64,000 nt of DNA from Squalus acanthias (lineage: Eukaryota), in NCBI GenBank assembly GCA_030390025.1, contig CM059431.1, positions 152,832,001-152,896,000 of the forward strand. The letters run 5' to 3'. Shown here in pieces: positions 26,455 to 64,000 of this stretch (positions are counted from its first letter, which is position 1; every line of letters starts with the position of its first letter). The position numbers were made by a program, and so were the translations under genes. The notes below the pieces were generated by a model that was not told the DNA's origin, did no database searches, and saw only the letters and a program-made list of their open reading frames with translations.

Positions 26455-27397
26455 TGTGAAGGAATAGCCAGGATTCAGAATAATATACGATAAGAAAAAG
26501 AGATTTCTGAAATTATTAATACATGACGTACTGGGTTTAAAATCATAAGCCTTAGCAGACACAGGCTGCAAACAGAATACAGGCTTATGAGATAAGATGG
26601 TTTGTTAACACAAAGCTGTTAACACAAGTTCGAGTAAAAACCTGGTTTAAGAACGAAGTGGAAAAAAGCTGTTCAAATACGTTCTGTTATTAACGAAAGA
26701 ACAGTTCAAATACATGTTAACCAGCCGAATTGCAAGCATATTTTTAAAACTGTCTCCATAGAAAATATCAAGAGATGTCCTGCAAGATACCGAAACGGCG
26801 GAAAAATACAAGGTGCAGTTGTACACTGTCTTTTAAGAGCCAGCTTGGAGCACGACACAGGAAATGGATGCGATCGAATTACTGATGATGGGAAGTCAGA
26901 AGGTGTACTCGGCTCTTCTACACGCTGCTTGGCAACGCATCAGGATTAGGATTTGCGAAACGCAACACCGAAACAAGGAAAGATCAACGAGTTACTTCAG
27001 CAAAGGAGGAAGACATCGCGGATAAAGAAATAATTAACTGAGTGCCTCGTAAGGCCTATACAGATACAAACATCTGTACACACGCTGGATCGAAGGAACA
27101 GCGTGTCAAGCTTCAACTAATTTCAAATGACGTCACCTTGACTCGTATGAAGAACTCACCTCTACATCTGCTGATTGAACATTTTAAGTACATTTTGTTT
27201 GGCTCATACATGTCTATGTTATCATCCTTTTAAATTGTGTACAATTTAAAATAAGGCAAAACATTGTCCTAGGATGATTTAAAAGGAATTTTCATGTTGC
27301 ACATGAATGTTCATCTCGTAAAATGAATATGCTATTGTAACCTCATAAGCAATATTGATCAAACCTTGTCCTGAAGTTTTAAGCTCATCTTTTGGTC

Positions 27398-27407
27398 AAG
27401 GCGGGGC
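27398..27407 (+). promoter_or_regulatory. Polypurine tract (degenerate)
   Basis: AAGGCGGGGC immediately before the TGTGAAGG start of the 3'LTR. Confidence 0.65.
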
Positions 27408-29096
27408 TGTGAAGGAGTAGCCAGGATTCAGAAAAATATATGACACTAAAAACAGATTTCTGAAATTATAAATAAATGACATACTGGGTTTAAAAATAGT
27501 AAGCCTTAGCAGACACAGCTTGCAAACAGAATACAAGCTGATGAGATAAGATGGTTTGTTAACACAAAGCTGTAAACACAAACTTTGATATGGGAATGGG
27601 ATAGAGACAAAGGCAATGCCCTATGGAAGCAAACCATTGGGAGGTTCCTCTAGAGTTTGGGAGAAAATCAATGGAATGACCCCCCAAGTAAAGTGTTATA
27701 ATCTAACACGTCTAACAGGTGCACAGGACTTTAAAAAAAAACAAGTGCATTTGAAAAAATGACATCAAGTAAGAAATACCTGTCGTAAAATAGTTTTATG
27801 TTAAACTTAGAAACAGGAAACACGATTAAATATGCAACCAATTCACATCGCGAGAAAACAAGTAAACACTGAGTTAAAGTGTTTTCAATTTACATATTGT
27901 AAATATAATACATACAGAAGGCTTTGAAGAAATGACATCAAGTAAACGAAACGCCTGCTGAACAAATAGTTTTAATGCTAAGCTTGAGGATGGAGTCACA
28001 TTGTCTGATAAAAAAACAATTGATGTAAATAAGAAATGTATGGAACACCCTAGATAAAGTGGTTTTAATTTACAAGTTGTAAAAGGTACACAAACATGAC
28101 GACTTTGAAAATATTACTTCAATGGATACACCAAGCAATCACATTGATCTTGTATTGAACATGGAATACCACGGAGACACAACGCCTGATAATAACCAGT
28201 TAAAGTAATATTAGAAAATCAGTAGAAAGACTTTGATAAGAATTGCGTCAAACAGAAACCATTGCTGTTCTTGTTTATATGACGGTTTTTGAAACCTCTA
28301 TGCTACAGACATAATTATGCATGCAATATCTAAATTGAGAGTAAAGACAGAAAGCATTCAACAGAGATATCAATAAAGAATAGAACAAAGTCAGCAAAGA
28401 CATAACTTAATACAATTAAGCTTACATCATCAGGAAAACTGCAAAGGATAAACCACCCAAAAAAGATATAAAAATAGATCTTTTCAAACAGAAAAGTCAG
28501 AAGTCACTGGGACGACAAGCGTTTCTCAACTTCACAGACATTCTCTGTAAGTTTACAACGTTTGAGTCTCGGGTAATCAAGGTATTTGATTGTGGTGGAT
28601 ATTCTGGATTAAGAAATAAGTAGAAGTGTGGAAATGTAACGAAGTTAAGTTTTGAGAATAAGGATCTCTGATAAGAAATGTAAGCTATTTGTATTTTGAA
28701 CGATTAAAGTTGTGATTGCCATAATATATGTAATCTAAATGTCGGTTCGTCAATAAATCTATATATTGTTAAAATTGTCTCAAAGAACAATACTGTATTA
28801 TCTTGCGAACTCAATTGCTGTGCAATCAAAGGACTGGTAGAATTCTCAGGGGTATTCCGGACCCTCATAATATCCTGAAGTTTTCAGTCTAGTTAAACAT
28901 TTTAAAAGTACTTACTGGAGGACGGTAACAACTTTAGACCGTTTCTTTCCTTTATGAAAAGGTAGCCTGACCTTTAGACCCAATTAAGCGTCTTATAGGA
29001 ACCGGCTACCGCAAACTTTAGTTGAAGGTAAACGTCTGGGGAATACGCCTGATCTGTGGTAGTCCAAAAGGGCTAGGACTTGTAATTATCCCTTCA
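27408..29096 (+). repeat. 3' LTR (1689 bp) of the foamy-like element
   Basis: Homologous to 44375-45794; TATAAAA at ~28467 and AATAAA at ~28752. Confidence 0.92.
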
Positions 29097-37075: not shown

Positions 37076-38501
37076 TGAAGGGATAATTACCAGTCGTAGC
37101 ACTTCGGGCTACCCCAGATAAGGCGTATTGCCCAGACGTTCACCTTCAACTACAGTTAGAGATAGCCGAATCCGAGAGACGCTTAATTGGGTCTACAGGT
37201 TCAAACTATCTCTCCCTAAAGGAAAGGACCGACTTGAAGACGTTACCGTCCTCCAGATCGCACTTTTAATAAGTTTAAATAGACTGTAAAGATCTGGATA
37301 TTATGAGGGTCCGGGAAACACCACAGAATTCTGCTACTCCTCACAAAAAAGCGTTCAAAATTGAGTTCTCGAGATTGATACAGAAGTACTATGTGAGACA
37401 ATTCTAAAAATATTTAGATTTATTAAAGAGCCGGCATAAACTTAACAGTTGGTGATTTCAATCGCAACTTTAAAACTTCAAAATTCAAATGACTTACATT
37501 TCTTATCAGAGATCCTTATTCTCAAATCTTAACTTCGTTACATTTCCAAATTCGTACATATTTATAATCCAGAATATCCATCAAAATCAAATAAAAGTTA
37601 ATTTTGATCCCCGAGACTAAAAAAGATAAAAATTTACAGAGGCTGCCTCTGAAGTTGAGAATCGCTTTGACGCTTCCAGCGACTTCTAACTTCCTATCTG
37701 AAAGCACTATATTTTATACCCTTTTTTGCAGTGGTATATTCTTTGAAGATTTCTTCTGATGTAAGCTAATTATCTCCAGTCATCTTTCTGTTGACTTCTT
37801 TCTATTCTTACTTTCAATTCAGCTGCTAACTTGCAGAATTCTGTCTCTATCTTTAGGTGTTCGAAGTTATCATACAAAATGGTCATGACAGTTGTATCAA
37901 TTTGATGACATTCTTACGAAGGTCTCCTGTTGATTTCTTAAATTACTTTAACTGCTTGTATTACAGACTTCGCATCTCCTTGTGTTCCAATTTCAACACA
38001 TAAACCATGTGATTACTTGATGCATCTTCTGTTTTTACCTTTTACAATATGTAAATCAAAGCACTTCAATCGAGTACTTGATTGTTTCACTAGCCATCTT
38101 AGTTGGTTATATTACAAACTTATGTTTCCTGTCTTTCATTTGATGTTACTTTTACAAAGACACATGGTTTTTTAATGCTCTGTGTTTCTGTTCGAAGTGT
38201 TAGTTTATAACACGTTAAACTGGGTATAGCTATTGTGTTGGTTCCAAACTGCAGACTTCTTGGAACCTACAATCCTCTGTTTCAATGAGGCCATTGTCTC
38301 ATTGTCAATAACCAATTCCTATTTCATAAGCTTGTATGGTGTTTCCGGCTTTGTGACTCATCGTATCTCAGAAGCCTGTATTTACAGTTTTTTGTCATTC
38401 AGGCTTTTAGATTTTTAAATCCAGTTTGCCATATTTTAATAAAACCAGAATTCTGTTCATAGGATGGTGTATTTTTCTGAAATATGTCTAATTCCTTTAC
38501 A
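37076..38501 (-). mobile_element. Solo LTR (1426 bp) of the foamy-like family
   Basis: Reverse complement runs TGTAAAGGAAT...ATTATCCCTTCA; perfect 4-bp TSD CCCT (37072-37075 and 38502-38505). Confidence 0.93.
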
Positions 38502-44374: not shown

Positions 44375-45794
44375 TGTGAAGGAATAGCCATATTCAGAAA
44401 AATACACCTTGCTATGAAATATTGTGACTTAATTAAACATGACAAACTGGGCTTGCAAATCTGAAAACCTCAGAAGCTGTAAACAGAATACAGGCTTTTG
44501 AGATAAAAATAGTTGTTGACACTCAAACAATAGCCTCATTGAAACAGAAGTTTAAAGTTTCCTGAAAGTCTGAAGCCTTGGAAATGAACACAATACCATA
44601 CCCAGTTGAAGGTGTCTTGAACCAATACTTTGAAATAAAACAGAGAACATTAAATAAACATGTGCCTTTGTAAAAATGACATCAAGTAAAAGGAACACCT
44701 GCCATCAAATCATTTTTATGTTAAACTTTGAACACGGAGACAGGAGTTTGTGTTTATACCAACTGAGCTAAGAAGACAATGAGATACCCGGTTGAGGTGT
44801 TTTTAATTTACATATTGGAAAAAGATACAAAAAGAATACTTTCATAAATATGACATCACTAGATGCAACAGCCTTCACATTGTTTCTGTGTGGAACTTGG
44901 AACACCTAGGACACCCGAAGTCTGTAATACAACCAGCTGAGGTGACTTAAGAATTTAATAGAAGTCTTTCGTAAGAATGGCATCAAATAGACACATCTGT
45001 TACAACCGTTTTTTTATGATGAACTTGGAACACCTAAAGGAGGGGACATAATTCTACTAAAAACAAGCTGAACTAACTGTAAGAATAGAAGGGGTCAAAA
45101 GAAATGTGACTAGTGATAATTAACTTACATCAGCAGAAAACTTCAAAGGATATACCACTGAGAAAGAGTATAAATATATAACTTACAAATGGGAAGACAG
45201 AATTCGCTGGAAGGAGCAAACCTGTTCTCAGACTTAAGAGGCAAGCTCTGTAAGTTTTCAATTCTTTAAGACTCGGGTATCAAGGTATTTGATATTGCTG
45301 GATGTCCTGGAATAAGACTAAGTAAGAAATGTAAAAGTGTAGAGAAGTTAAGATTTGAGAATAAGGAGCACTGATGATAAGAATTGTAAGCTTTTTGTAT
45401 TTTGAACTGTTAATGTTGCTACTGAATCACCAACTGTAACTACATCTTGGTTCTTTAATAAATCTGTATATTTTTTTAGAATTATCTCACACAGTACTTC
45501 TGTATCAAATTCGCGAACTCAATCTCTGTACACTCTTTGAAGAGGAGTTGCAGAATTCTGGGGGAGTTTTCCAAATCCTCATAATATCAGGAAGGTCACA
45601 GTCTAGCTAAACTTATTAAAAGTGCTATCTGGAGGACGGTAACATCTTCAGGTCGATCCTTTCCTATAGGGAGAGATAGTCTGGACCTCTAGACCCAATT
45701 AAGCGTCTCTAACTTTAGTTGAAGGTGAACGCCTGGGGAATACGGCTGATCCGGGGTAGCCCAAAAACGGCTAGAACTAATAATAATCCTTTCA
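44375..45794 (+). repeat. 5' LTR (1420 bp)
   Basis: TGTGAAGG...CCTTTCA; TATAAA at 45169 and AATAAA at 45457; homologous to the other two complete LTRs. Confidence 0.93.
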
Positions 45795-45796
45795 GT

Positions 45797-45812
45797 TGGC
45801 GCCCAACGTGTG
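45797..45812 (+). promoter_or_regulatory. Primer binding site, tRNA-Lys1,2 type
   Basis: TGGCGCCCAACGTG two nt after the LTR end; this is the PBS type used by foamy viruses. Confidence 0.92.
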
Positions 45813-46056
45813 TGTTAACGAGTTGATACAGAACCTAAACTTATATTTATATCTATATCCATCTTGTAGATTGTTAAGTATAGATGGATGTTTTACTGAC
45901 AGTGGTAATAAGACCCAGACTTACGTCTCTAGAGACAGCAAGTCCCTGATCAGGCCTTGTAAAACTTAAATCAGAACGCCCTCAATATACCATTGAGGCC
46001 TAGAACTTTCTTATAAAGTTCATATTAAAACCTAACCGAGATTAGGTCCTTAAGAA

Positions 46057-47600
46057 ATGGCAAACCCTGTCGTAATTGGCCAAGTCTTTTTATTAGGAAA
46101 TTCAAACGATTCCTTTATTAGGGGAAATAATTCTATCCCTTTACCTTCACAAAACCAAGTGATAGTTTTTGAAATAGGAGGCTTTGATGCTGATGGAGCA
46201 GTTAGAACTCATGGCACGATTGATGTTGATCCCCAGAATCAGTTGATACGGAATATCCAGTAGGATATTGAAACAAATATTCCAAATCCACTGAATTCCT
46301 TAATGATAACGTGCACACCTGCACAATTGGGAGGCCTAATGAACGGTGCCCAACAAGGTGGTGGCAACCATGGCAGAATAGTAGGACCAGGAGCTGCCTA
46401 GGCTCCCGGGGGACATGGATTCGGTTGAAGTCGAAGCTCATGATGAAATAAATGAGCAGAATCTTCGAGAAAAATATAGACAGCTTAGAATCCATTATAA
46501 TCAATGCCGACAGGCACTAGCTCAATCATATCTAAATGCTGGTGGCGCAATGCTTACTGGTCCAGTAAGCCAAACCCAGCAACCACACATTGCTCCCCAA
46601 GGACAAGTAAACCTAAGCTCTATCTGCACAATATGTGGTAAGCCGGGAAACACCAGCCAGGAAAAAACCTGCTGGATTCTAACAAACCTTGATAAATTGG
46701 AAACCTCTTGCCAAGAATAAAATGCCCCACACCTGAGGCAACTACTGCAAATGATACTAAGTTCAGACTTAATTCCCCCATTAACAAATGGGTTAAATAT
46801 ACGCCTACGTTCTCACGGCAACTCAGGGAGGGCATGTAATGGGTTCCATCAAGGAAATACTCACTAATACCGCCACAACTAAAGGGCTGGTAGCTGCCTA
46901 CAGATTAGGCAATGTACTTACACAGGATAACTGAGGCATTGTCCATGGTTGCCTGGCCAATCAATACCAAAATAAAGCCCTCAAACTTGCCTTTGAGGGG
47001 GTTTTAAACGATTATCGAAATAACCAACAAAGATGGGAAAATTTCAATCGCATTATCCAATTAAATCATTACCTCTTAGGTCTACCCCAAACTAAAACTA
47101 TAATGAGATCAGAAACTAGGGATATAAAAACCGGAGAAGGTACCTTTTGTACTCAGAAACAAGGACTGTTTAGACCCAAGTCTCAAGTCCACCCCGCCCA
47201 GACACAAGCTCGTGGCTCGGGAACCCCCAAGAGGGTATTCCAGAAGGTTTACATCCGCAACTCGCCCACAATACGAGGAAGATTTATCCCCGGAAAGATA
47301 GGATAGAAGAGGGGCTAGATCTCAAAACGAAAGTGAAGGACAGTGGACTCCCTATGGGGATAGCTTTTACACTGGCCAAAACTATCAGAGAGCCATGAGG
47401 GGCTACCGGGAAATCCGAAATGGGGATCAAAACGATTCCCAGCAGAACCAACGTCCACCCCAACAGGAGGATCGTCAAGATAATAAACGGTCCGACAAAC
47501 TCCGAAGGGATCTGGAAAACATGATACCCCCAAGAGGGAGGAACAAAAATCAGTTAAAATAATTAAAGACAAAGCACCAAATAAAACTCAGGATCCTGAG
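46057..47600 (+). pseudogene. gag: Foamy-like gag (stops and frameshifts)
   Basis: N-terminal coiled coil; ICTICGKPGNTSQEKTCWILTN spaced like PFV IRSVTGEPPRNPREIPIWLGRN; LPGQS (~46950, PGQA-like); HYLLGL (~47067, YxxLGL-like); Q/R/G-rich tail. Confidence 0.8.
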
Positions 47601-47601
47601 T

Positions 47602-50600
47602 ATGGACAGTCCCAGGATTCAAGGCCTGGCATCCAGCCAGCGCCTCTTGAATTCCCCTATGCCCTGGCAAACTTACCCACAAACACACAAGTGAAGGCCC
47701 TGTTTGATACGGGAGCTGATAACACTGTCATAGATCCTGCAATTATAAAAACTAACAGGACAGATTTGGGAAGCCCAATTTGTTAAATACCAATAGGGGG
47801 ATTCACACAAGACAAAATCAAAAAAAAATATTATTACAAAATACCTATTACCATATATGGATTCACGGTGACCCTAGATGTCGGACTGTTACCACAATTG
47901 GCCTGTTCCCTCATTATAGGACAACCAGACATGAAACATTACCTTAAAATTTCAACCAGATCTGTAGAAGCATCCGCAGACCAGGATGACAGGGAAAAAC
48001 ATGTTCGGACACAGCTTGATCGCACTTGCCTAGAGGGGGAGGCAAAGACCTCCTCGAGCAACTCCTTAATATATTATACCCTTATCTACAACGCCATCCA
48101 AATCAATGTGGAAAGATAAACATCAAATCCCACCCACTTGCTGCTGGCTGGAACAAACCTAAAAACCAGTGCCAATTCAGGACAACAAAGGAAAAATAGA
48201 TCTTCTAACAACGCTCAAAGAACTAACACAACAAGGTGTCTTAATCAAAATGGCATTTAGAACGAATTCACCATTGTTCGGTGTTTCTAAACCAGATGGG
48301 AGTTGCAGATTATTAGTCGATTATACAGATTTAAATTAGATAACAGCCCCACATACTGCACAAAAGCAAAATTCCACAGCCCTTCTCTCTGGAATCACGA
48401 GGGAAAAATATAAATCTTGTATTGGTCCAGCAAACGGCTTCTGGTCACATCCAATCGAAAAAACTGATTGGCCAAAAACAGCGATGACTGGACCCAATGA
48501 TTATCAGTACTGCTGGACCAGATTGTCCCAGGAATTTCAAAACAGCCCCGTTCTCTTTTCAGTCCACAAAATAGACCATTTAAAATACCTACCTAACGTC
48601 AATTCTTATGTGGACGATATATCTCTGTCACATGACAATCTCCAAGAGCACTTGAAAGTCATTGATAGTGTTTTATCCAGACTTACAACTGCTGGGTAAT
48701 TAATCAACATAAAAAAGAGTCAACTAGTTAGGGAAGAGGTAGATTTTCTGTGCCTGCAAATAACTGGATTCGGTAGAGGACTAACTCAATTCTATAAAGA
48801 AAAATTATCCACCATTCAATATCCTAAAATTCTGAAAAATCTGCAAGCAAGTTTAGGACTCCTGAATTTTGCTCGATCCTTTACGCCAACCTTTGCCGAG
48901 CTCTCAGCACCCCTGTATGCTAGAGTGGGCGAAGCAGAAAAAGGACCATTCATATTTTCACCAGAGGATTACTCAAAATTGCAACAATTATGCCGAGAGG
49001 TACGAAAAGGCATAGACGTGGAGCAGATGGTCCTGCAAGTTCCCCTCAATATTCATCTCAGGTCATTACCTAAAATGGCAGTTGCAGTTTTCTATAATGA
49101 AAAGAACATAGTGCCCATTCAGTTCCATTTGTATAACTTTTTCAATGTCGAAAGGAGGTACATTAAAAAATAAATGTTCATGACTATAGTAGTCCAATGA
49201 CTCATCAAGGCACGAACCCTTCTGGGAAATACCCCATTACCATCTATACTGAAATTACCGATTTAAGATCAGTATTGAGGATGGCCTCTGATGAAAAAAG
49301 AGCCATCCAGATCTGATATGATAAATGGGCAATCTTACTTGAATGATCCAACACTGATCATTAAATTCCTCTCCCCGGAAATGGACAGAGCTTATCCCCA
49401 TCATGGAGAATGAGGATACGGAGCAGCGAATGAGACAAATACCTATGAGACCGCTTACATAATACCATCAAGTCATTTAATTTGATGGGTCGTTAATGAC
49501 GATTAAACAAGGGACATCCCAACAATCCTCAGCTGGGATGGGGATAGTAGTAGTGACCTTTCGAGATTCCTATTCTTTTTATACAGAAGAATTACTGTCC
49601 ATACCCTTTGGCCATAAGACAGCGCAGTATGATGAAGCTGCAGCACTACGGTATGCTTTAGAAAAGGCAGACCTTATTAAACCCACACGAATCTGTATGG
49701 ATAGTGACTACCATAACAGAGGAGATAACCAAGATCTAGTTTTCTGGGAACAAACAAATTTTACCAATCATAATTGTAAACCCATAAAACATAAGTCATT
49801 GCGGGAAGACATTCTCCTTTCGAGAGTAGAGAAACAGAATTGTCAGGTGATTCATGTGAACGGGCATACCAATGGGAGAGTTCGCTCAAAAGGAAACAGT
49901 CTTGCAGACGAACAAGCGAAACGTTTAGTCGGCTTGACCCCCCCTCGAGAGGGGCCTGCCAATATTAATGTTATCACTAGGGCAGAACGGGCAGCTAATC
50001 AGGATGAGGAACTGATTCAGCTATTAGACCCAACAAAAGAGAGTCCACCAGGATATCCACCAAAGTACTTTTACTCGGAACCCGTACGGGTATTGTGCTA
50101 GTTAAGTTGCCCAAGGGAAACCGAGGAGTACCCCTGAGACACAAACGAGAACAGCTTGTAAAAGGAGCTCAAGAGGACATAAGTCAAGCACATTGTGGTG
50201 CCAGAACAACATTCTGCAAATTGACCTCCTTATCTTGGTGGCCAGGCATGCTTAATGCCTGTAAAACATACGTGGCAAATTGTGAGCCATGCCAGTTAAC
50301 CAACAAGTCATCACTAATTAAGCCACCACCATTGGCTCCTGTGAAAGCTGATGAGTCAATGGGGAAAATTCTTTATTGACTTTATTGGACAACTTCCCCC
50401 GTCTTTGGGATACAGACATGTTCTCGTTTGTGTAGGTGGGTGCACTTTCTTCTGCTGGCTGGTCCCCACTAAAATTGTTTCAGAAAACGCACTAGCTAAG
50501 GCTTTTTCTAACATAATTACTGTAGCTGATGCACCCAAAATCTTACACTCCGATCAAGGCAGAGCCTTTGTCTCCAAGGTCTTCGAAGACTACTGCAAAT

Positions 50601-51392
50601 AAAGGGGGATTGGGTTAGAGCACAGCACGCCACGTCATCCGCTATCAGTGGGGCTGGTGGAACGTAAAAACAAGAAAGTAAAACAGCTATTCGTCAAACT
50701 GTTGAGATTCAGGGGGAATAAGTGGACCACCGTTATTCCGAAGGTGCAGCTATCACTTAGTAATGTTCCCGCATCTGCATCAGGGACAGAGTCCCCTAAA
50801 ACCCCATATTATCTGATGTGTGGAGTTGACATGAATACACCACTTACCCATAGTTATTTTATTGCCTCTGCACTCTCTGAGTCCTTGACCCGACAGTGAC
50901 AGTTAGATTTTAAAAAGAAGTAAAAGAGGAGATTCATCAAATTGATCAGAGGATAAGGGAAGCAAAAAGGCAGAAACGATTGACAAACAATGCATGGAAA
51001 CCCCTAGTAGGAGAATGGGTACAGGAAAAGAAGTTCGAGCAAAAACCTAGTTTAAGACCGAAGTGGAAAAAACCTGTTCAAATACATACTGTTATTAACG
51101 AAAGAACAGTTCAAATACATATTAATTAACCGAATGGCAAGCATATTCTTAAAACTGTCTCCATAGAAAATCTCAAAAGATGTCCTGCGGGATACCGAAA
51201 TGGAGGAATAATACAAGGTGCAGTCGTACACTGTCTTTCAAGACCCAGCTTGGAGCATGACACAGGAAATGGATGCGATCGAACTACTGATGAAAGTCAG
51301 TCAGACGGTGTCGCCGACTCATCCACACGATGCTTGGCAAAGCCTCAGGAATTGGATTCGCGAAAATTAACAACTGAAACAAGGAAATATTA
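47602..51392 (+). pseudogene. pol: Foamy-like pol: protease, RT, RNase H, integrase (multiple stops and frameshifts)
   Basis: LFDTGA; ANGFWSHPI; QYCWTRLSQEFQNSP; YVDD; SIPFGHKTAQ; AHCG...WWPGM...CEPC; KFFIDFIGQLPPS; HSDQG; VERKN; WKPLVGEWVQE; SLRPKWKKP; TVSIENLK. Confidence 0.95.
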
Positions 51393-51512
51393 ACGAGTTG
51401 CTTCAACGAAGGAGGAAGACATCGTGGATGAAGAAGGAATCAACTGAGTGCCTGGCAAGACCTTTATGAAAACAAGAATCAGTACACACACCGGATCGAA
51501 GGAACAGTGTGT
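51200..51512 (+). pseudogene. Short ORF in the env position overlapping the pol tail (ORF-X); second copy at 26795-27120
   Basis: ATG inside pol codons AAT-GGA; the two copies have stops at different codons; merged reading is ~108 aa. Confidence 0.5.
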
Positions 51513-52689
51513 GACCAGTGCTAGTGCGAGCAAGCACTGAGTGCGAGTCAGCAGAGAGTGCTGCGATTGGGTAAGTGTGACAGTTCTTTAATTGTTAGTT
51601 CTCTTTAAATCATTCTTGATAAGAGTACTTAAGCAGTTTAAGTGAAGGGTAAAAGTTAAATATTTGGGATTCTGTTGGTTGAAGAAGATTGGCTGCCTCA
51701 TCAGCCAGTAGAAGGAGACTGAGGAGAGCAGCAGCAGCAGCAGAAGCAGAAGCAGAGTGGTGGTCTCCTTGACCAGGGAGAGGAGGAGGAACCAGAACCA
51801 GACTGCAGACCACCACCAACCCAACAACCACTCCAACTGAGGTGCCTGGAGAGAGAGGACAGGAGAGGAGAGGGAGAAGGAGAAAGGAAGGCCAAATAAA
51901 CATCACCAGAGGAGGAGAGGCCTTTCCATAGTGCCTCCCCAATTGGCCTCCATTTTAGGAGAGGGAGAGAGGGGAGAAAAACAACACCAGCAACCATCAT
52001 CTGCTTGGAAGGAGGGAGGAAGAAAAGAACAACTGCAGGTGAGTTTGTTTTGCAGGTGGGGGGAGGAAAGAAGAAAAGAAGAGGGCCGGAATATCCAAGG
52101 GGTGTGTGTGTGTGTGTGTGGCTTTTGAAAGAACTAGGCCGCACACACCACTAATTAAACACCCCTTCCCATTGCCTGACCTGGGACAGCTGGAGCTGCC
52201 TAGGTGAAGTCCCCAATTCAATTAACCTGATTGGGGCATCGTTAAGACCTGGTGCAGGACTGAGCCTGGGCATCTCTAGCTTTCCCAGGTGAAGACATCT
52301 TCTCCCCCCACCAGAAGACCACCGGAGAGGACTCTAATTTACATCGGAGAGTGCACCCCCTGCCAACACCCACCCACCCACCATCCTGAGTGGCGACCCT
52401 GCCCTTGTGGCTTCCCTCCTTCCCACCCCCACTCTCTCTCTCTTTGTCTCTTGTCTCTCTCTGCCTCTCTCTCTATCAGATAGGCACCTCAATTTACTTT
52501 TATTAATTGCCCATTGAGCAGAGGGGAGAAGGCCCCTCTCCTAATCCATTCAAATAAAGGGAGAGGTGTACCTTCAATTTAAGAGCTCCCTCTGCTCAGG
52601 GGAAAAAAAAAAACCCACAAAACCCAATGCCATTAACACCGTCAGGCCTGTGACTTGGGGTGAGTGTAGCCCTTAAAGACCCACCCATT

Positions 52690-54876
52690 ATGGCGAGCAC
52701 ATCTTCGTCGGTGGCGGGGGCAGCGAGGACGTATGCGAGCGTAGCAGCTGCGGCCACGGCCGCAGCCACGAGTCCTCCTGTTACCCCGTCACCTTTTACC
52801 CTCCTTACGAGGACGAATGGGGTCAAGAGCTACACTCACCCCAACATGAGTATAGAGGCGTGTGTAAAAGCCATGGCTGGGGTTGTCGGCCCTTCAGCCA
52901 TCGTTGCCGCCTCTAAAATGTACGGCAAGGCTGTGTTCTTCCTGGGGTCGGAGCGGGCGGTGTCCCTGGCCATCGAGAAGGGGCTCACCGTGGGCGGGAC
53001 CTTCCTGCCGGTGGACCCCCTTGAGGCCACCGCGCAAAGGATAGTTATTTCCAACGTCCCGCCCTTTGTTCCGGGTGAGCTCCTCCTCCCCCACCTACGT
53101 CAACTGGGGGAGGTGAGGTCGGGGATCACACCCATCCACTCGGCTTCCGGGAAGCCAGCCTCCGGCACGTCTTCTCCTTCCGGCGCCAGCTTTTCATCCA
53201 GCTGGCGTGGGAGGAGGACGCGGACGGCGCGTTCATGGTGCTCCACGGGGGGACTGCCCATCGCGTCTTCTGGACCTCGGACGGCGTGCGGTGCTACGCC
53301 TGTAAGGGGGTGGGGCACGTCCGCAAAAACTGCCCCGCCTCCAAGGCCGCCACGACACCTGGCGCGGCCAGGGCTGGCGCCGCAGCACCCACTCCACCTG
53401 ATACTACCCGCGCGTCGAAATCCACAGATGCGCGGTCGACGTCGGGGGCCAACACCATCACGGCCTCCAGCGGGGGGGAGGGAGAGCGTCCGAGGGGAAG
53501 GAAGGCGCTGAGAAAGACCAAACACCTAAGGGCGGATCCCCTCGTGGAGGAAACCACCGATTTGCCTGAACTCACGCCCGCGCTCATCGCGGAATTGACG
53601 GGGACGCGTGAGGCTGGGGGGGTCCTCGTGCCCGGGCACGTGACCGTGACCACAACTGCCAAGGCAGCTAAATCAAGACCTGCGGCCGGGCTCGGGCCCG
53701 AGGGGCCCAAGAAACCCAGTCATCGGAAGGGGGCAGACAGGGAGGCCCCAGCAGACATGGAGGCCTACCCCTCTCCGGGCCCCAACATGTTAAAAAGGAA
53801 GCTCTACCCCCAGGAGGAGGACAGAGAGGAGGAAGGTCCCTCCGCAAAAGGGGAGTCGTCGCCCGCCGCGGGTGCTGCGCCCCACCCCACCGCTGTCACC
53901 ATCGTGCGCGATCGGCAGGGGTCTCCTGTCCCTCGGGAGGGTGAGACAGACAAGTCTGTCGCACCCGTGCCTCCCGGGGATGGGGAAGAGACCCTGCCCG
54001 TGGGTGGGTGCGCGGAACAACCCGCGGAATTAAATAAAAAAGGAATACCAGAACCGTTGCTCCTCGCCGGGTCGGGCGTCCTGGGGACTGGGGCGGGCGA
54101 GGCCAAAGAGGCCGGTACTGAGCCCGCCCACTACGACCCAGATATATCCCAGGGACTGCTCGAACTGGTCGAGGATTGTAATACGAATCCCCAGCCCGCT
54201 GGGTCGGAGGCTGGTGGCGGGGAGATAGAAAGCCCCCTGACTCCGTCTCTGACGTTGGCGCCGGACGTGCTAGAAGAACTGGGAATTTTTTACTCCCCAG
54301 TTTCTCCGGTCGCTCCGGCGCCTGAGGCAGAGGGGGGCCCCCGAACCGCTGCCGCCACCCGGCCCGGCGCCCCTGAAGGAGCCCAGGGTGGACTCCTCTG
54401 CCACCGATCCTGGGGGTGGGATCGTGACAGACGCGGGACCGGCCGGTGCGGCAGGGCCGTTCACTGCACCCCGTGCGACGGACTGGTTGGCCGCCGGTGA
54501 CGACCTCCCAGAGGAGGACGGGGAGTCGGTGTTGGGCACTGAGGACGATTTGGAGTCCATCACCAGTGAGACGGTGGACGCCCTCGTGCCTCGCACCGCC
54601 TCTCCCTTCATCCCCGTAGGGAAACTCCGGGTTTTTATGGCCACGTGCCGGGGTCGTCATCATAAGATCCGGCTGGCCCTCGACAAATGGTCGGAGCTGG
54701 CGCTGCTCGTCCGGTCCGTCCGCGCCGCCATTAAAATCATGGGCGCGGACAAGGACGTAAACCGGGCCGAGCTGCGTCGGCTCAAGGCGTTCCACGCTGG
54801 GCTGCTGAGGGAGTGGCGGTCGTCAGTGACCGCGCTCCCTCCCCCCCGTTGGGTAGAGGTTGCACTATGCTTCTGA
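52690..54876 (+). pseudogene. Tx1 ORF1 (gag-like with CCHC knuckle), two frameshifts
   Basis: IVAASKMYGKAVFFL, ISNVPPFVP, CYACKGVGHVRKNC; split over ORFs 52660, 53235 and 54388. Confidence 0.88.
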
Positions 54877-54877
54877 G

Positions 54878-57800
54878 ATGAAGATAACCATAGCCAGCCT
54901 CAACATCAACGGCAGCAGGGAGGCGCGCCGTAGATTCAATAACTTCTCGGTCCTTCGGGACGGGAAATATGCAGGTGTGCTTCCTGCAAGAAACCCACAC
55001 CGTTCCGGGAGACGAGGCCACGTGGCTCCTGGAGTGGCAAGGAGGTGTCAGCATGAGTCACCTCTCCAACAATTCCTGCGGGGTGGCCGTCTTGCTGGCC
55101 CCGCATTTTCAGCCGGGGATCTTGAGGGTCAAGGAGCACGTGCCGGGCCGCTTGCTCCAAGTCACTGTTCGCCTGGGAGGCGTGCCGCTCCATTTAGTGA
55201 ACATCTACGCCCCCCAGTGCGCTTCTTCGGAGAAGTGTCCGCTCTTCTGGGCTCCATCGACGTGGGCGAGTGCGTCGTCCTCGGGGGGGATTTCAATTGT
55301 ACCCTCGAGGTGCGGGACCGGTATGGTCCCCCGCGAAGCCCGGCGGTGATGGAGAAGTTGCAGGACCTGGTCGGGTCCTTCGACTTGGTGGACGTCTGGC
55401 GAAATCTCCATCCCGACTCCAGCGCCTTCACTTGGGTGGGGTCTGGAGGAGGGAGGTCCAGAATCGACTGCCTTTACATTTCCCGGGTGTACGTCTCCTG
55501 TGTTCCGGCAGTTTCCATGCTGCCGGTGCCGTGCACGGACCACCACCTGGTGTGGGCGGAGCTCGCTCCGCTGCGCGCGCGGGGGGAGGTCCGCGTACTA
55601 GCATTTTAACAACCTGCTGCTGGAGGACGCGCGGTTCCGGGATTCGTTTCGCCGGTTCTGGGCCGACTGGAGAAGGAAGCGGGGAGGCTTCCCCTCCTTG
55701 AGGCTATGGTGGGACGTGGGCAAGGCTCACGTCCGCGTCTTCTGTCAGGAGTACGTGAAGGGGTCGACCAAGAGGCGGGAGGCACGGGTCGGGCGATTGG
55801 AGAAAGAAGTGCTCGACCTGGAGTCCCGTCTCGGTCAAGTCGTCGAAGACCCGGCCCTGCGGAAGGTGTATGAAGAGAAGAAGGGCGCGCTGAAGGACCT
55901 GCAGTTAGTCGGGTCCCGAGGCGCGTACGTGAGGTCGCGGATCCAGTTCCTGCGGGACCTGGACCGCGGCTCCCCCTTCTTCTACTCGCTGGAAAAAAGA
56001 CGGGGGGTCCGTAAGCAGCTCTTGGGGCTGCAGGCCGACGACGGATCTCTGGTCTCGGATCCGGAGGGCATCAGCGCGGAGGCCCGGGCCTATTACAGGG
56101 CTCTGTTCTCTTCGGATCCGTCCAGCGAGGATGTGCACAGAGTTTTGTGGGAGGACCTGCCGAAGGTCGGCCCGGAGGGCGCCGAGAATTTAGAAGCTCC
56201 GCTAAGCCTGGCGGAGCTGACCGGCGCCCTGCGCCAGCTCTCGAGGGGCAAGTCCCCGGGGCTGGACGGGCTGACCGTGGAGTTCCACAGGGCGTTCTGG
56301 GACGTCTTGGTGGACGACTACGCGCGGGTCCTGGGGGAAAGTCTGGCGACCGGGGAGATGCCCCTCTCTTGGCGCAGGGCGGTCATCGTCCTGCTGCCCA
56401 AGAAGGGTGATCTCCGCCTTCTTAATAACTGGTGCCCGGTCTCCCTCCTCAGCACGGACTACAAAATTTTCGCCAGGGCTATGTCTGCTCGCCTTGGCAC
56501 CGTGCTGGCCCACATGATCCACCCCGACCAGTCCTACACGGTCCCGGGCCGGTCAATCCACGACAACATCCACCTGGTCCGGGACCTGGTCCACCATTCC
56601 CAGAGGGCTGGTCTGTCGGTCGCCTTCCTTTCCCTGGATCAGGAGAAGGCGTTCGACAGGGTGGATCCCGAGTATCTTTTCGGGACTCTGCGCGCATTCG
56701 GGTTCGGGACGCATTTCGTCGCCCGGATCCGACTTCTGTACGCCGCCGCGGAGTGTCTGGTTAAAGTTAACGGGTCTTTGACGGCGCCCCTTCGCTTCGG
56801 GAGCGGGGTGCGTCAGGGATGCCCCATGTCCGGTCAGTTATACGTCGTTTGCGTGGAGCCTTTCCTGCGCCTCTTGCGGAAGAGGTTGACGGGACTGGCT
56901 CTGCAAGGGCCGGGTGTGGAGGTGGTCCTCTCGGCTTACGCCGATGACGTACTCCTCGCGGTCACGGAACCCGTCGACTTGCGGAGGATGCGAGAATGCC
57001 AGCAGATTTACTCGGACGCATCCTCCGCCAAGATCAACTGGGAGAAATGTTCTGGATTCCTGGTGGGCCCATGGCAGGTGGACTCCCTGCCGGAGGAGTT
57101 CAGGACCTTTGCCTGGAGCACAACGCACCTCCTCTACCTGGGAGTCTACCTCAGCCCGGCCGAGGACGCCTGGCCGGCGAACTGGCAAGAGCAGGAGGCC
57201 AAAGTCACCGCTCGCCTAGGACGCTGGAGAGGACTACTCCGAGTGTTGTCCTACAGGGGTGGAGTGCTGGTCATAAATCAGCTGATGGCCGCCATGTTGT
57301 TGTACCGGTTGGTCACTTTGATCCCTCCCCCTGCGTTTGTCGCCAAGATGCAGAAGAAGCTCGTCGACTTCTTCTGGGACAAAAGGAAGCACTGGGTCTC
57401 TGCTGCGGTTCTGTGTCTCCTGCTTAGGGAGGGCGGTCAGGCGCTGGTGTGCCTTCGCACCCAGGCGGCGACTTTCCATCTTCAGACGCTGCAGAGATAC
57501 CCATACGTGGAGAATCCTCCTTGGTGGCGTGCGCTGGCTACGTATTTCTTCCGCCAGCTGCACGGCCTCAATTACGACACGCAGCTCCTGTTCGTGAGAG
57601 TGGGCGGCACGTGTGCCAGCTTGCGGGAGCTGCCTTTCTTCTACCAGGAACTGCTTTTGGTTTGGAATAGCGTCGCCTCCAGGCGCAGTTCTCCCCCATC
57701 AGGAGCGGCGGCAGTCCTTCGGGAGCCGCTGCTCAGGAATCCGCACCTCCACGAACGCGGGTTCGGTCGTCTGGCGGAGGGCAGGGCTGTGACTAGAGTC

Positions 57801-58751
57801 GGGGACCTGCTCGATGGCAGAGGAGCGGGCTGGATGGCGGCAGAGGAGTTGGCGAGGCGCATGTCTTGGATCAACGTCCGGCTCGCGGTCAAAGCCATCG
57901 AGTCGCTAAAAGTGGCACTGGGCCCCGACTCCACTAGGTGTATCGAGGAGGCTCAAGCACGTGGGGCGATCCCGTCCGAGCTGACCCCCGTTCGGACGGA
58001 ATTCCTTATCAGCGCCCGGCCCCGACTCCTCCCTCGGGAGCCGCCGCCTCACCACTTGAGCCTTCTCGGAGAAATGCCCTCCGTGCCCTTTCAACCCGCA
58101 CGGAGGCGTTTCCAGTACGGGCTGCTCCTGCACACTCTCCAGTTTGCCATCTTCGTCTGCCGTCCGGACACGCCTTGGCGTACCATCTTGCCGTCCGGCG
58201 GAGGCGAAGGTCCCCAATGGAGGGCTCTCTAAGCGGGAGTCTTCCCTTGTTCTATTGGGGACTTGGCCTGGAGGGTGTTGCACGGAGCAGTCCCGTGCAA
58301 TAGGCTGTTAAGTAGGTTTACGGACTCCAAGGCCGCTTGACATTTCTGCGGCCTGGAGGAGTCCGTGTTTCACGTTTACGTAGAGTGTGAGAGTTTGCAG
58401 CCCCTCTTTCATTACTTGAAGGGGCTGCTTCTCAATTTCTGGTTGCACTTCAGCCCCACGCTCCTGATCTACGGTCACGCGGTGTGGAGGGGAGCGGGCA
58501 GGTCGGAGGACCTCCTCGTGGGACTGCTCTTGGGCCTGGCTAAGAAAGCCATTAATTGGTCCAGGCAGCGGGTGGTCGAGGGGGTCATTCGGCCCGATTG
58601 CCTGCCTCTCTTCCGCGGCCATGTTCGCGCCCGGGTGGCCCTGGAGATGGCGCACGCGGTGTCCGCCGGCACGCGTGAGTTTTTCCGCGACCGGTGGGTG
58701 CCCCGGGGACTGGAGTGCATCGTCACCCCTGACTACCAAATTTTAATTTAA
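54878..58751 (+). pseudogene. Tx1 ORF2 (APE, RT, C-terminal zinc motif), frameshifts in APE and a stop at 58230
   Basis: ASLNING, FLQETH, GGDFNC, TDH; KSPGLDGL, LDQEKAFD, GVRQGCP, AYADD; FCGLEESVFHVYVEC. Confidence 0.93.
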
Positions 58752-59233
58752 TTTGTTAAGTTTCCTTTAAAGTTTTATTTCCTTACAGATAATTGATTGG
58801 TTTACATTAAAAGAGTAAGAAGAGTAAAACAAGTTTGCAATGCAGTAGGAGTACATTTGCACAGCAACAGTTGAAAACAGTTTTCTAATCAATCAGCAGG
58901 GGTGACTCATTTGGCTGTAAACAAACAAACAGTATAAAAAGACCAGTGCTAATGCGAGCAAGCACTGAGTGCGAGTCAGCAGAGAGTGCTGAGTTTGGGT
59001 AAGTGTGAGTTCGGGTGAGTGAAGTGTAGGGTGCTCTTTTCAAACTTTAACTCTGTGGGTTGCAGTTAATAAGGCCTTCCTGGTGCAGAGTGACTGTTGG
59101 TAAACTATTTAACTTGTGTAATTTAGAGGGATTGATTTAATTTAAATCCAATTAATTAGAGGGGTACTACCATCTATAATCGGGCAGAAAGTGTCCAAAT
59201 CTAACAATAAAACAAATTAATTAATTACATAGG

Positions 59234-60190
59234 ATGGAGCAGGTGATGTGTTACTGTTGTGAAATGTGGGAGCCGGTGTACCCCATTGAGGCTCACGGTG
59301 ACTACATTTGTGACAAGTGTCTGCTGCTACAGGAACTCCAGCTCCGTGTTGATGAGCTGGAGTCTGAGCTTCAGAAACTGCGACACATCAGGAGGGGGAG
59401 AAGTACCTGGACTCTGTGTTTCAGGAGGTGGTCACACCTATGAAGTTAATTAATTCAGATGTAGCCCATGGTCAGGGACAGGACGGTGTGACTACGAGTG
59501 AGGCAGGTACGGGGATCCAGGAGGTAGTGTTGGAGGAGCCACAGCCCTTGCTCTAGTCCAACAGGTTCGAGGTTCTAACTCCCTGTGGGGACAGGAGCAG
59601 GGACTGCAGGGAGGATGAGTAACGTGGCCACAGCACCGTGGAACGGGGGGCCAATAAAGAGGGGGGAGTAAATAGAAGTGTTGTAGTGGTAGGGGCTAGT
59701 ATTATTAGGGGAATAGATAGAGTTATCTGCAGCCGAGTGCGAGAGTCCCGTAGGCTGTGTTGCCTGCCCGGTGCCAGGGTTAAGGTCAACTCCTCTGGGC
59801 TGGAAAGAAACTTGCAGTGGGAGGGGGTGGATCCAGTTGTCGTGGTCCATGTATGTACAAACGACATCGATAGGACAAGGAAGCCGGTTCTGTTAAAGGA
59901 GTATGAGCAGCTAGGGGTCAAATAAAAAAAAACAGAACCTCAATGGTAATAATCTCTGGATTATTACCTGAGCCACGAGCGAATTTGGCTGGGACAAATA
60001 AAATTAGAGAGTTAAATGAGTGGCTCAAAAACTGGTGTGGTACAAATGGGTTTTGCTTCCTGGGACACTGGCACCAGTATTGGAGCTGGAGGGAGCTGTT
60101 CCGTTAGGACGGGCTTCACTTGGCCAGTGCTGGGACTAGAGTCCTGGCGGATCATACAACTAGGGCTGTAGAGAAGGCTTTAAACTTTCT
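59234..60190 (+). pseudogene. CR1 ORF1 (zinc finger plus esterase), decayed
   Basis: MEQVMCYCC...CDKC...LCCLPGARVK...HVCTND; closely similar to ORF1 at 18570-19496. Confidence 0.9.
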
Positions 60191-60427
60191 AATGGGGGGG
60201 GGGGGGGGGGGAGGTTCCTAGAGAGCAAATAAAAATGAAAATAGAGAAGGTCATAGACTTAGGTAGCAGTAAGGAAATTAAAAACCAGAGTGTGTCAGGA
60301 AGGGGCAGAAGGTATGGAGTAAAAGGTAAAGTAATAAAAAGGGCAAAAGCAGGAACTAAGTGTCACAAAACATATTTGAAAGTTCTCTATCTGAATGCAC
60401 GGAACATTCATAACAAAATAGACGAGT

Positions 60428-63400
60428 TAGAAACATAGAAACATAGAAAATAGGTACAGGAGTAGACCATTCGGTCCTTCGAGCCTGCACCGCCATTCAA
60501 TGCGTTCATGGCTGAACATGCTACCTCAGTACCCCATTCCTGCTTTCTCGCCATACCCCTTGATCCCCCTAGTTGTGAGTGTTATATCTAACTCCCTTTT
60601 GAATATATTTAGCGAACTGGCCTCAACAACCTTCTGTGGAAGAGAATTCCATAGATTCACCACTCTCTGGGTGAAGAAGTTCCTCCTCAGCTCAGTCTTA
60701 AATGGCTTCCCCTTAATCCTTAGACTGTGACCCATGGTTCTAGTTTTCCCTAACATTGGGAACATTCTGCCCGCATCTAATTTGTCTAAACCAGTCAGGA
60801 TTTTAAATGTCTCTATAAGATCCCCCCTCATTCTTCTGAACTCCAGAGGATACAAGTTCAGTTGACCCAATCTTTCTTGATATGTCAGGCCGGCCATCCC
60901 AGGAATCAATCTAGTGAACCTTCGCTGCACTCCCTCGATAGCAAGAATGTCCTTCCTTAAGTTAGGAGATCAAAACTGCGCACAATACTCCAGGTGTGGC
61001 CTCACCAAGGCCCTGTACAACTGCAGCATCACCTCCCTACTCCTGTACTCAAATCCCCTTACTATGAAGGCCATCATTCCGTTTGCTTTCATGACTGCCT
61101 GCTGCACTTGCATTCCCACCTTCAGTGACTGATGTACCATGACGCCCAGGTCTCGTTGCACCTCCCCTTTCCCTAATCTGCCACCATTCAGGTAATAGTC
61201 CGCCTCTCTATTTTTACCACCAAAGTGGATAACCTCACATTTATCCACATTGTACTTCATCTGCCGTACATTTGCCCATTCACCCAACCTGTCCAAGTCA
61301 CTCTGTAGCCTCCTAGCATCCTCCTCATTGTTCACACTGCCTCCCAATTTAGTGTAATCCGCAAATTTGGAGATATTACAATTAATCCCTTCGTCCAAAT
61401 CATTAATATATAATGTAAACAGCTGGGGTCCCAGCACCGAACCCTGCGGTACCCCGCTGGTCACTGCCTGCCATTCTGAAAAGTACCCATTTACTCCTAC
61501 TCTTTGTTTCCTGTGTGCCAACCAGTTCTCAATCCACGTCAACACATTACCCCGAATCCCATGTGCTTTAACTCTGCTCACCAATCTCGTGTGGGACCTT
61601 GTCGAATGCCTTCTGAAAGTCCAAATACACCACATCTACTGGTTCCCCCCTGTCCACCCTATTGGAAACATCCTCCAAAAATTCCAGAAGATTTGTCAAG
61701 CATGATTTCCCTTTCACAAATCCATGCTGACTTGGACCTATCATGTCGCCACTTTCCAAATGGTCTGTTATGACATCTTTAATAATTGCTTCCATCATTT
61801 TACCCACGACCGATGTCAGGCTGACCGGTCTATAATTCCCTGCTTTCTCCCTCCCTCCTTTTTTAAAAAGAGGGGTTACATTGGCCACCCTCCACTCCAT
61901 CGGAACTGATCCAGAGTCTAAGGAATGTTGGAAAATGATCGTCAATGCATCCACTATTTCCAAGGCCACCTCCTTAAGTACTCTGGGATGCAGACCATCA
62001 GGCCCCGGGGATTTTTCAGCCTTCAGTCCCATCAATTTCCCCAATACCTTTTCCCGACTAATAAGGATTTCCCTCAGCTCCTCCCTCTTACCAGATCCTC
62101 TGACCCCTTTTATTTCCGGCAGGTTGTGTGTGTCCTCCACAGTAAACACCGAACCAAAGTACTTGTTCAATTGATCAGCCATTTCCGTGTTCCCCATTAC
62201 GACTTCCCCTGTTTCCGATTGCAGGGGACCTACGTTTGTTTTTACTAACCTCTTTCTTTTTACATATTTATAGAAGCTTTTGCAGTCCATTTTAATGTTC
62301 TCTGCAAGCTTCCTTTCATAGTTTTATTTTCCCTGCCCTAATCAAACACTTCGTCCTCCCCTGCTGAGTTTTGAAGTTCTCCCAGTCCCCGGGTTTGCTG
62401 CTACTTCTGGCCAATTTGTATGCAACTTCCTTGGTTTTAATAATATCCCTGATTTCCCTTGTTAGCCATGGTTGAGCCACCTTCCCTTTTTTATTTTTAT
62501 GCCAGACCGGGATGTACAATGCTTGTAGTTCATCCATGCGATCTCTAAATGTCTGCCATTGCCCTACCACTGATAGCCCCTTAAATATCGCTTGCTAATT
62601 TAACCTCACCAATTCACGCCTCATACCCTCAAAGTTGCCCTTATTTAAGTTCTGGACCATGGTCTCTGAATTAACTCTTTCCTTCTCCATCCTAAATGTA
62701 GAACTCCAACATACTATGGTCACTCTTCCCCAGGGGGGCTCGTACCACAATATTGCTGATTAGTCCTTCCTCATTACACAACACCCAGTCCAGGATGGCC
62801 TCCCCTCGCGTTGGTTCCTCAACATATTGGTTTAGGAAACCATCCCTTAAACACTCCAGGAAATCCTCTTCCACCGTATTGCTTCCAGTTTGAGTAGCCC
62901 AATCTATATGCATATTAAAGTCACCCATGATAACTGCTGCGCCTTTTTTGCACGCACCTCTGATTTCCTGTTTCATACCCTCCCCCACCTCACTACTGCT
63001 GTTTGGAGGTCTGTACACAACTCCCACTAACGTTTTCTGCCCTTTGGTGTTCTGCAGCTCAACCCATATTGATTCCACATCCTCCAAGCTGATGTCCTTC
63101 CTAGCTATTGCATTAATCTCATCTTTAACCAGCAATGCTACCCCACCCCCTTTTCCTTTTATTCTATCCTTCCTGAATGTTGAATACCCCTGGATGTTCA
63201 GTTCCCAGCCTTGATTGTTCTGCAGCCACGTCTCTGTAATCCCAATCACATCGTATCCGTTAGCATCTATTTGCACAGTCAATTCATCCACCGTATTACG
63301 GATACTCCTTGCATTAAGACACAGAGCAGTTAGGCTTGTTTTATTAACATCCTTTGTCCTTTTAGACTTATGATTTAGTATGGCCCTTTGTGTTTCTTGC

Positions 63401-63526
63401 CTTTGTTTACTGGGCCTTCCCCTATTGTTTCTCACCCTTCTAACATTTGTTTCTGAATGCATATTACTTCCCCCTGTTTCGCTACATAGATTCCCATTCC
63501 CCTGCCATATTAGTTTAAATCCTCCC
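60428..63526 (-). mobile_element. CR1 LINE (different subfamily): complete but frameshifted ORF2 and 3' tail
   Basis: APE (LCLNARS, ITETW, GDFN, SDH) and RT (GVPQGSVLGP, FADY) split across five ORFs; (TGTTTCTA)n tail at ~60430-60450. Confidence 0.93.
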
Positions 63527-64000
63527 ATAGATACATAGATACATAGAAGATAGGAGCAGGAGTAGGCCATCCGGCCCTTCGAGCCTGCTCCGCCATTTAA
63601 TGAGATCATGGCTGATCCTCCAATTCAGTATCCCGTCCCCGCCTTCTCTCCGTAACCCTTAACCCCTTTTGCCTGTAGAAATATATCTAATTCCCTCTTA
63701 AATATATTTAATGAGCTGGCGTACACTGCCCTCTGTGGCAATGAGTTCCACAGGTTCACCACCCTCTGAGTGAAGAAATTCCCCCTCATTTCTGTCCTAA
63801 ATGGTTTAGCCCTTATCCTTAAATTATGTCCTCTAGTTCTGTTCTCACCCGCCAAGGGAAACATTCCTTCTGCATCTAGTCTGTCTAGACCTGTCAGAAT
63901 TTTATACACTTCTATGAGGTCCCCTCTCAATCTTCTAAACTCCAGTGTGTACATCCCTAAACTACATAGTCTCTCCTCATAAGTCAATCCCGCCATTCCT
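63527..64000 (-). mobile_element. 3' end of another CR1 LINE, running out of the window
   Basis: LEFRRLRGDLIEVYKI...FFTQRVVNLWN; 3' stem-loop and (TATGTATC)n tail, inserted at the ORF1/ORF2 junction of the preceding element. Confidence 0.93.

Follow-up and report, generated by a model that had tools for sequence, protein, structure and literature searches.

Separate expression of Pol from a spliced messenger RNA (mRNA) is the textbook trait that divides foamy viruses from other retroviruses. ERV-L/MuERV-L and IAP are env-less 'superspreaders' among the endogenous retroviruses (ERVs), combining env loss with intragenomic amplification and non-autonomous derivatives, and foamy-like ERVs are known in birds. 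Such foamy-like elements have also been described from the coelacanth (PMC3386198), teleosts (PMC5210030, PMC12642411) and amphibians (bioRxiv 2020.12.18.423569). Here we describe a foamy-like ERV family of the shark Squalus acanthias, starting from a provirus at positions 44375–51512 of a 64 000-nucleotide stretch of contig CM059431.1 (positions 152 832 001–152 896 000, assembly GCA_030390025.1; hereafter the window). We consider it probable that an env-deleted branch of this family was amplified and that its Pol was likely made by UGA readthrough between in-frame gag and pol. The env deletion, the hundreds of family copies and a gag–pol layout that breaks a defining spumaretrovirus rule all go beyond an initial annotation of the window, which had pointed out a foamy-like virus at this position. 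The window copy is organized as follows.

44375–45794, plus strand: 5′ long terminal repeat (LTR), 1420 bp, TG..CA, sitting in a 33-bp satellite, with 5′ flank GGGA
45797–45814, plus strand: primer-binding site (PBS) for tRNA-Lys(CTT), 14 contiguous matches
46057–47618, plus strand: gag, broken, about 520 codons, with a foamy central (capsid) domain (PF20672, E=5.6e-10) and without a Cys-His box
47619–47621, plus strand: codon between gag and pol, which is TGA in most members of the family and TCA here
47622–47645, plus strand: predicted GC-rich hairpin, starting right after the junction codon
47622–51393, plus strand: pro-pol, broken, with protease DTG at 47706 and reverse transcriptase (RT) YVDD at 48607
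About 49481–49930, plus strand: RNase H, part of pro-pol
About 50110–51200, plus strand: integrase, followed by a C-terminal tail, both part of pro-pol
51200–51476, plus strand: env remnant, 92 codons from the beginning of the leader, which overlap the end of pol; the membrane anchor and the remainder are deleted
51475–51512, plus strand: env-deletion junctions, a mid-env 35-nt island followed by the opening bases of the post-env region

The mammalian foamy viruses (PFV/SFV, FFV, BFV and EFV) gave the best matches for RT (≈40% identity), integrase, the central part of Gag and Env, and they share with the window family the YVDD motif, the lack of a Cys-His box, a tRNA-Lys PBS, a long LTR and a long Env leader overlapping the end of pol. 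The family differs from them in having gag and pol in one frame with a TGA and no pol start codon, a DTG protease whose broken sequence gave no match to the A9 profile, no accessory open reading frame (ORF) found after env, an Env leader start in which WxxW was not seen, and mostly copies without env. The foamy-like ERVs NviFLERV, ERV-Spuma-Cbo, CoeEFV, AciFLERV and AliFLERV are likewise endogenous and belong to the same clade, with AciFLERV also sharing the 4-bp target-site duplication (TSD) and the Lys PBS (PMC5512871). However, gag and pol overlap in different frames in NviFLERV-2, AciFLERV and AliFLERV, according to their published coordinates (PMC5512871), and out of frame in the stork element ERV-Spuma-Cbo (PMC6955096), all of which have accessory ORFs, and none of the newt, stork, coelacanth or teleost elements is described as an env-less burst in the accessible text of their reports. 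Two elements of cartilaginous fish were compared by description: CmiFLERV of the elephant shark, known from pol only (PMC5512871), and ERV-Spuma.0-Sca of the small-spotted catshark, which groups with AciFLERV/AliFLERV (PMC10699275), whereas the window element falls outside the teleost clade. Gene models of C. milii and S. torazame are just 34–41% identical to the window family. An exon of a catshark host gene matched at 81%, which gives indirect support to a cartilaginous-fish host. The superspreaders ERV-L/MuERV-L and IAP resemble it in env loss followed by amplification and non-autonomous derivatives, but the parent of the window family was of foamy type and env-bearing relatives persist in the same genome. 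Readthrough retroviruses (gamma/epsilon types, XtERV-S, SSSV and a zebrafish ERV with UGA) have a similar in-frame gag-stop-pol with a downstream structure, but they are not foamy viruses.

Foamy identity of the element

Judged by its RT, integrase and central Gag domain, and by the Env of its sibling copies, the element is clearly a member of the foamy-like ERV clade. When the broken frames were searched with stops as X, RT matched foamy protease–RT structures at E=1e-73, the next best entries being 4ol8 (2.7e-22), Ty3 Gag-Pol (1.7e-21) and, at 4e-17 or weaker, p80 RT/RNase H entries that we take to be MLV-type, and the integrase core matched foamy integrase at E=2.7e-45, with the next best at 9e-7, similarities well outside what chance would produce. 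Among Pfam profiles, Gag_FV_central matched the window Gag above its cut-off, as did those for RT, RNase H and the integrase zinc domain, with weaker matches of the integrase core and protease; Foamy_virus_ENV was found in sibling copies, the window itself keeping 92 env codons only. In an RT tree of 49 rows, which were taken from search hits and included no named lokiretrovirus, ERV-L or coelacanth sequence, the window copy fell within the foamy-like clade (100/99), thus bearing out the initial annotation in that its RT did not group with Ty3/Gypsy or non-spuma ERVs. It stood outside the clade of teleost elements and was weakly grouped with a Scyliorhinus torazame gene model and the protein P0121, adjoining the mammalian foamy viruses, placement within the foamy-like clade being weak (92/74, 83/62). 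Protein searches, which had limited sensitivity, found no close relative, and the highest identity to any protein was 39–40%, so that the suggestion of an undescribed lineage holds as far as searched.

Other features typical of the spuma clade were the tRNA-Lys PBS, TG..CA LTRs, a polypurine tract and the 4-bp TSD, which was exact in five of six sibling pairs with clean ends and agreed at 3/4 bases in the sixth. The predicted 1.4-kb LTR and Lys-type PBS were both found as annotated: the LTR ends followed from a solo LTR within the window and from LTR pairs of sibling copies that have 4-bp TSDs, the start at 44375 being also the end point of the 33-bp satellite, and the PBS was complementary at 15/18 nt to the 3′ end of host tRNA-Lys(CTT). 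The quoted motifs were also in place (KFFIDFIGQLPPS at 50366, HSDQG at 50546, VERKN at 50657, SLRPKW at 51049, YVDD at 48607 and PQGQ at 46595), and no Cys-His box was seen in any gag frame. A YxxLGL-like motif that had been listed with them was found in part, as YLLGL at 47070, where LGL aligned with the motif of prototype foamy Gag whereas the Tyr was displaced by one residue. As a separate observation, the catshark gene model P0034 has a PRDM11-like PR domain fused with a piece of foamy-like RT, which is probably an annotation artefact.

Deletion of env and amplification of the env-less branch

A DNA search of the genome turned up 555 candidates. Scores were given for 40 of them (83–100%), and the best 20 after the window copy were taken for comparison. 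In all 20 siblings, later insertions aside, integrase was followed by a short tail, the polypurine tract and the 3′ LTR, with a stretch from integrase to 3′ LTR of 296–334 bp in the 16 siblings measured, the remaining ones holding later insertions. The foamy Env profile of Pfam had 11 matches in the genome, and the six loci examined were all of the same family, with 82–89% nucleotide identity over gag–pol. In the env-less copies about 3.2 kb of env is gone, by way of two deletions flanking a 35-nt island, and both deletion junctions were identical in 20/20 siblings and the window copy. The ORF at 51200 is the start of env, 67% identical to that of an env-bearing sibling. In two DNA trees made from two regions, the env-less copies formed one clade (100/100) nested among the env-bearing copies. 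Sharing of this single double deletion, together with the monophyly of the env-less copies, showed that env had been deleted and not merely cut off by the long interspersed element (LINE) that ends the window provirus. The junctions carry the microhomologies AG and CAGCG. Removal of env by splicing was rejected: in the env-bearing copies shown, the left ends have GA and CG where a donor would have GT, and the microhomology fits a deletion, even though AG closes both right ends. With junction-specific 22-mers, allowing one mismatch, we counted at least 316 env-less as compared to at least 15 env-bearing sites, with 0 in controls.

These findings suggest a history in which an env-bearing virus would have entered the germline, whereupon one descendant may have lost env through two microhomology-guided template jumps, with the start of the leader retained. 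As foamy viruses require Env for budding of their capsids (PMC7828637), an env-less virus would be trapped in its cell and could reinsert there, and the env-less branch may thereby have grown to hundreds of copies, likely via retrotransposition within germ cells. Such a record fits the laboratory retrotransposition of a primate foamy virus inside cells (PMC3705263). Internally deleted subfamilies would then have been copied in trans, and the window copy would later have decayed, been duplicated together with its flank and been cut by LINEs.

Two non-autonomous subfamilies were seen, one with a 3.3-kb deletion from gag to RT in two breakpoint variants (L115–L120), the other with a 1-kb deletion in gag (L094, L098, L100, L101, L103, L105, L112 and L113). 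LTR length in L034–L046 varied from about 1.07 to 1.7 kb via internal repeats of the 5′ half, the env-bearing copies having the shorter form.

The gag–pol junction and expression of Pol

In the sibling copies, pro-pol continues in the frame of gag (about 520 codons), from which one stop codon separates it. That codon was TGA in 10 of 14 env-less and both env-bearing copies spanning the site, and in 78 of the 100 junction codons listed of 153 genome-wide sites, the others being 15 TGG, 4 TGC, 2 TAA and 1 TTA. No Met occurred between the junction codon and the protease site 28 codons on in any of 25 rows, the first Met lying at position 29 or later (one row having none). The predicted hairpin (z −3.2) begins at the base next to the junction codon. 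Among all 30-nt windows of the internal region it ranks first for stability in the window copy, and no lower than second in each of five siblings. The tree neighbor P0121, a protein with a Gag-sized N-terminus, protease (at residue 523), RT, RNase H and integrase, is encoded by one unbroken 1687-aa ORF, which fits a Gag-Pol product. In foamy viruses, Pol comes from a spliced mRNA and not as part of Gag-Pol (PMC7828637); sites of in-frame UGA readthrough are found in other aquatic retroviruses, including XtERV-S (PMC8278194) and, with in-frame UGA, SSSV and a zebrafish ERV (PMC13517186). Because of the shared frame, the TGA, the lack of a pol Met, the hairpin, the contrast with described foamy ERVs and the UGA precedents, we infer that readthrough was used: this is the simplest reading of Pol expression and one we regard as likely, with a spliced pol as the possible alternative. 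Ribosomes would stop at the UGA to give Gag, and occasional hairpin-aided readthrough would give Gag-Pol.

Foamy-like ERVs were already known, and, as far as searched, we found no earlier report of either a readthrough gag–pol in a foamy virus or an env-less foamy burst, in a literature search with most subscription papers and several supplements outside its range; a 2026 review (PMC13517186) had 0 occurrences of 'foamy' or 'spuma'.

Several observations weigh against readthrough. The Gag of P0121 has no detectable similarity to the Gag of the window family and their common branch is weak (92/74), the UGA-AGG context is not among the motifs tested in PMC13517186, and a hairpin at +1 lies nearer than most structures listed there. 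A sense codon was present at the junction in 20 of the 100 listed sites, and 8 of 20 non-TGA copies examined had the 1-kb gag deletion, implying that these were copied without need of the stop. 

The TGG copies were not shown to be a single clade, one group of six being found at 87/92 and the others staying unresolved in a tree from which 9 short rows were left out. Changes of the junction codon were mostly at its third base (15 TGG, 4 TGC), with first-base changes in 0 of the 100 listed; Trp and Cys are also inserted during UGA readthrough, and TGG and TGC may also stem from a small number of deleted masters that were copied. In four small-share contig sets of presumed type, the deletions of the family were seen and none of the joints listed was of GT..AG type, which is no evidence either way.

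If Pol was instead made from a spliced mRNA, with an upstream start and an acceptor just after the TGA, the same family would have undergone the same env loss and the shared frame would be coincidental, as would happen with a one-in-three chance. A spliced pol mRNA is the rule in every foamy virus studied (PMC7828637), and AG dinucleotides do occur in the pol frame a few codons past the TGA, but these candidate acceptors lie inside the hairpin and lack a pyrimidine tract, a donor-like GTAATT following the gag ATG occurs in the window copy but not in siblings (which have GTCGGA or similar), the missing Met leaves no start between the junction and the protease site, and foamy ERVs for which gag and pol coordinates are published overlap the two in different frames. 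We therefore hold this alternative to be improbable. Far less credible, and largely refuted, is that the element is a Gypsy element, a lokiretrovirus or a class III ERV (ERV-L/S-like) with foamy-looking motifs. An in-frame TGA layout is also found in the class III element XtERV-S (PMC8278194), the protease matches only generic aspartyl-protease profiles, and weakly, and neither PF03539 (Spuma_A9PTase) nor PF03276 (Gag_spuma_N) matched the broken sequence, the Gag_spuma_N blank being uninformative; however, RT, integrase, the central Gag domain and Env all had foamy best matches by wide margins, and the 100/99 clade was recovered, albeit in a tree without a named lokiretrovirus.

A comparable question concerns the env-less copies, which might all be passengers: env-bearing proviruses would have packaged and copied them in trans, and they may have moved from cell to cell as defective genomes do, instead of being self-driven retrotransposons. 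Pairwise dN/dS of pol among 19 env-less copies was 0.50 (95% bootstrap 0.43–0.62) as compared to 0.75 and 0.79 in the other frames, and 0.35 among six env-bearing copies. RNase H and integrase supply this signal (0.43–0.55 among env-less copies, all having the deletion), and the 3′ half of integrase was monophyletic for the env-less copies, which argues that the selection signal was not imported from env-bearing ones. Full-length gag, moreover, was kept in 22 of the 34 PBS-to-stop pairs listed, with 10 lacking about 1 kb of gag. We read these data as own Pol probably still being in use after env loss, in a self-driven env-less master line with passengers, helper-driven spread being a live rival to which we would nevertheless assign a small probability. 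In favor of that rival, and against a self-driven line, RT alone had no purifying signal (0.80 as compared to 0.65 and 0.72 in other frames), nor did gag (0.82), the tree was star-like, the non-autonomous subfamilies are clearly present, and the LTR ages of env-less (0.013–0.054) and env-bearing (0.023–0.074) copies overlap, so that env-bearing helpers may have been available. The count of 316 also overstates the number of coding copies, since at least 13 of 30 PBS-to-junction pairs, among the sites listed, cover only about 2.4 kb and are short non-autonomous copies. Regression of dN on dS was uninformative, the control frames being equally flat, and the env leader remnant gave a dN/dS of 0.57 with an interval of 0.28–1.30.

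Two canonical spumaretrovirus traits are lacking in this family, namely a pol that has a start codon and a frame of its own and, as judged in decayed copies, accessory genes (tas/bet) after env. Env-bearing copies have about 530 nt from the env stop to the polypurine tract, and this region held no ATG-started ORF of at least 60 aa in 4/7 env-bearing copies where the tract was located, these copies being decayed; its best frame had 55 stops in 1235 codons as compared to 0 in 409 for the end of env. No WxxW was found in the first 15 residues of the Env leader. As far as decay of the copies allows, the parent resembles a plain foamy virus with gag, pol and env only. With gag-UGA-pol in frame in copies with and without env, the separate-Pol trait would be either not universal or not ancestral, and the short gag/pol junction offers a site where readthrough can be measured. 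A bolder proposal, which we advance only tentatively, is that shark foamy viruses kept an ancestral Gag-Pol made by UGA readthrough without accessory genes and that env loss turned one of them into a self-driven retrotransposon. If this is true, Pol made independently of Gag from a spliced mRNA, the defining trait of the subfamily, arose later, and the lineage is a natural case of a foamy virus becoming a self-driven retrotransposon via env loss. The family itself documents, within a single genome, the passage from enveloped virus through env-less amplifier to gutted passengers, and the value of the locus rests on the gag–pol layout and the env-loss history of the family, not on the decayed window copy.

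Age, decay and surroundings of the window copy

Distances within LTR pairs were 0.013–0.046 in eight long env-less copies, 0.015–0.054 in five short env-less copies and 0.023–0.074 in seven env-bearing copies, leaving out of the range one pair with an alignment running into the flank (Kimura two-parameter distance, K2P, of 0.004) and one with 98 aligned bases. If substitutions accrue at 2.2e-10 per site per year, as PMC4422223 assumes, 0.013–0.046 would very loosely correspond to roughly 30–105 million years. Dating of the window copy by its own LTRs was impossible, as it has no 3′ LTR and no matching 3′ end was found within 28 kb past the window.

The initial annotation had called the provirus well preserved, which we could not uphold. 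Its pol has nine in-frame stops across six segments, the copy has about ten frame changes, its terminal branch in the tree was 0.064–0.068 as compared to about 0.02 for siblings, and it ends at 51512, where a LINE starts. The window copy is a decayed, 3′-truncated, ordinary dead insertion, more decayed than its siblings. That it might be a separately selected subfamily was rejected, its extra divergence being neutral (0.83 as compared to 0.81 and 0.81).

An inverted segmental duplicate of the window copy was found about 0.47 Mb off (L013 and L114, at about 153.35–153.38 Mb), where the 5′ LTR has the same flank and differs from that of the window by 4.2% (K2P). The 3′ part of the duplicate locus comes from another insertion, its LTRs differing by 16.8% and its TSDs disagreeing.

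Positions 1–44374 are a long, diverged 33-bp satellite array broken by several retroelements. Three insertions of the foamy-like family lie inside the array, and further LTRs are found past the window end. Other features related to the provirus were as follows.

26455–29096, plus strand: gutted copy of the env-less clade, with the start of the LTR, the end of integrase carrying the same junction, a polypurine tract and the 3′ LTR (27408–29096)
37076–38501, minus strand: solo LTR of the same ERV family, 4-bp TSD AGGG
51513–60429, plus strand: LINE insertion truncating the provirus, presumably CR1-like, with a 7.1-kb element that we take to be Tx1-like nested at about 51689–58815

The nested non-LTR element lies in the 5′ part of the LINE and has a zinc-knuckle ORF1, a long RT ORF and an 8-bp duplication; its empty site was seen at the duplicate locus L013. 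A second LINE, with endonuclease and RT, occupies 60431–64000 on the minus strand, nested in the first LINE in opposite orientation.

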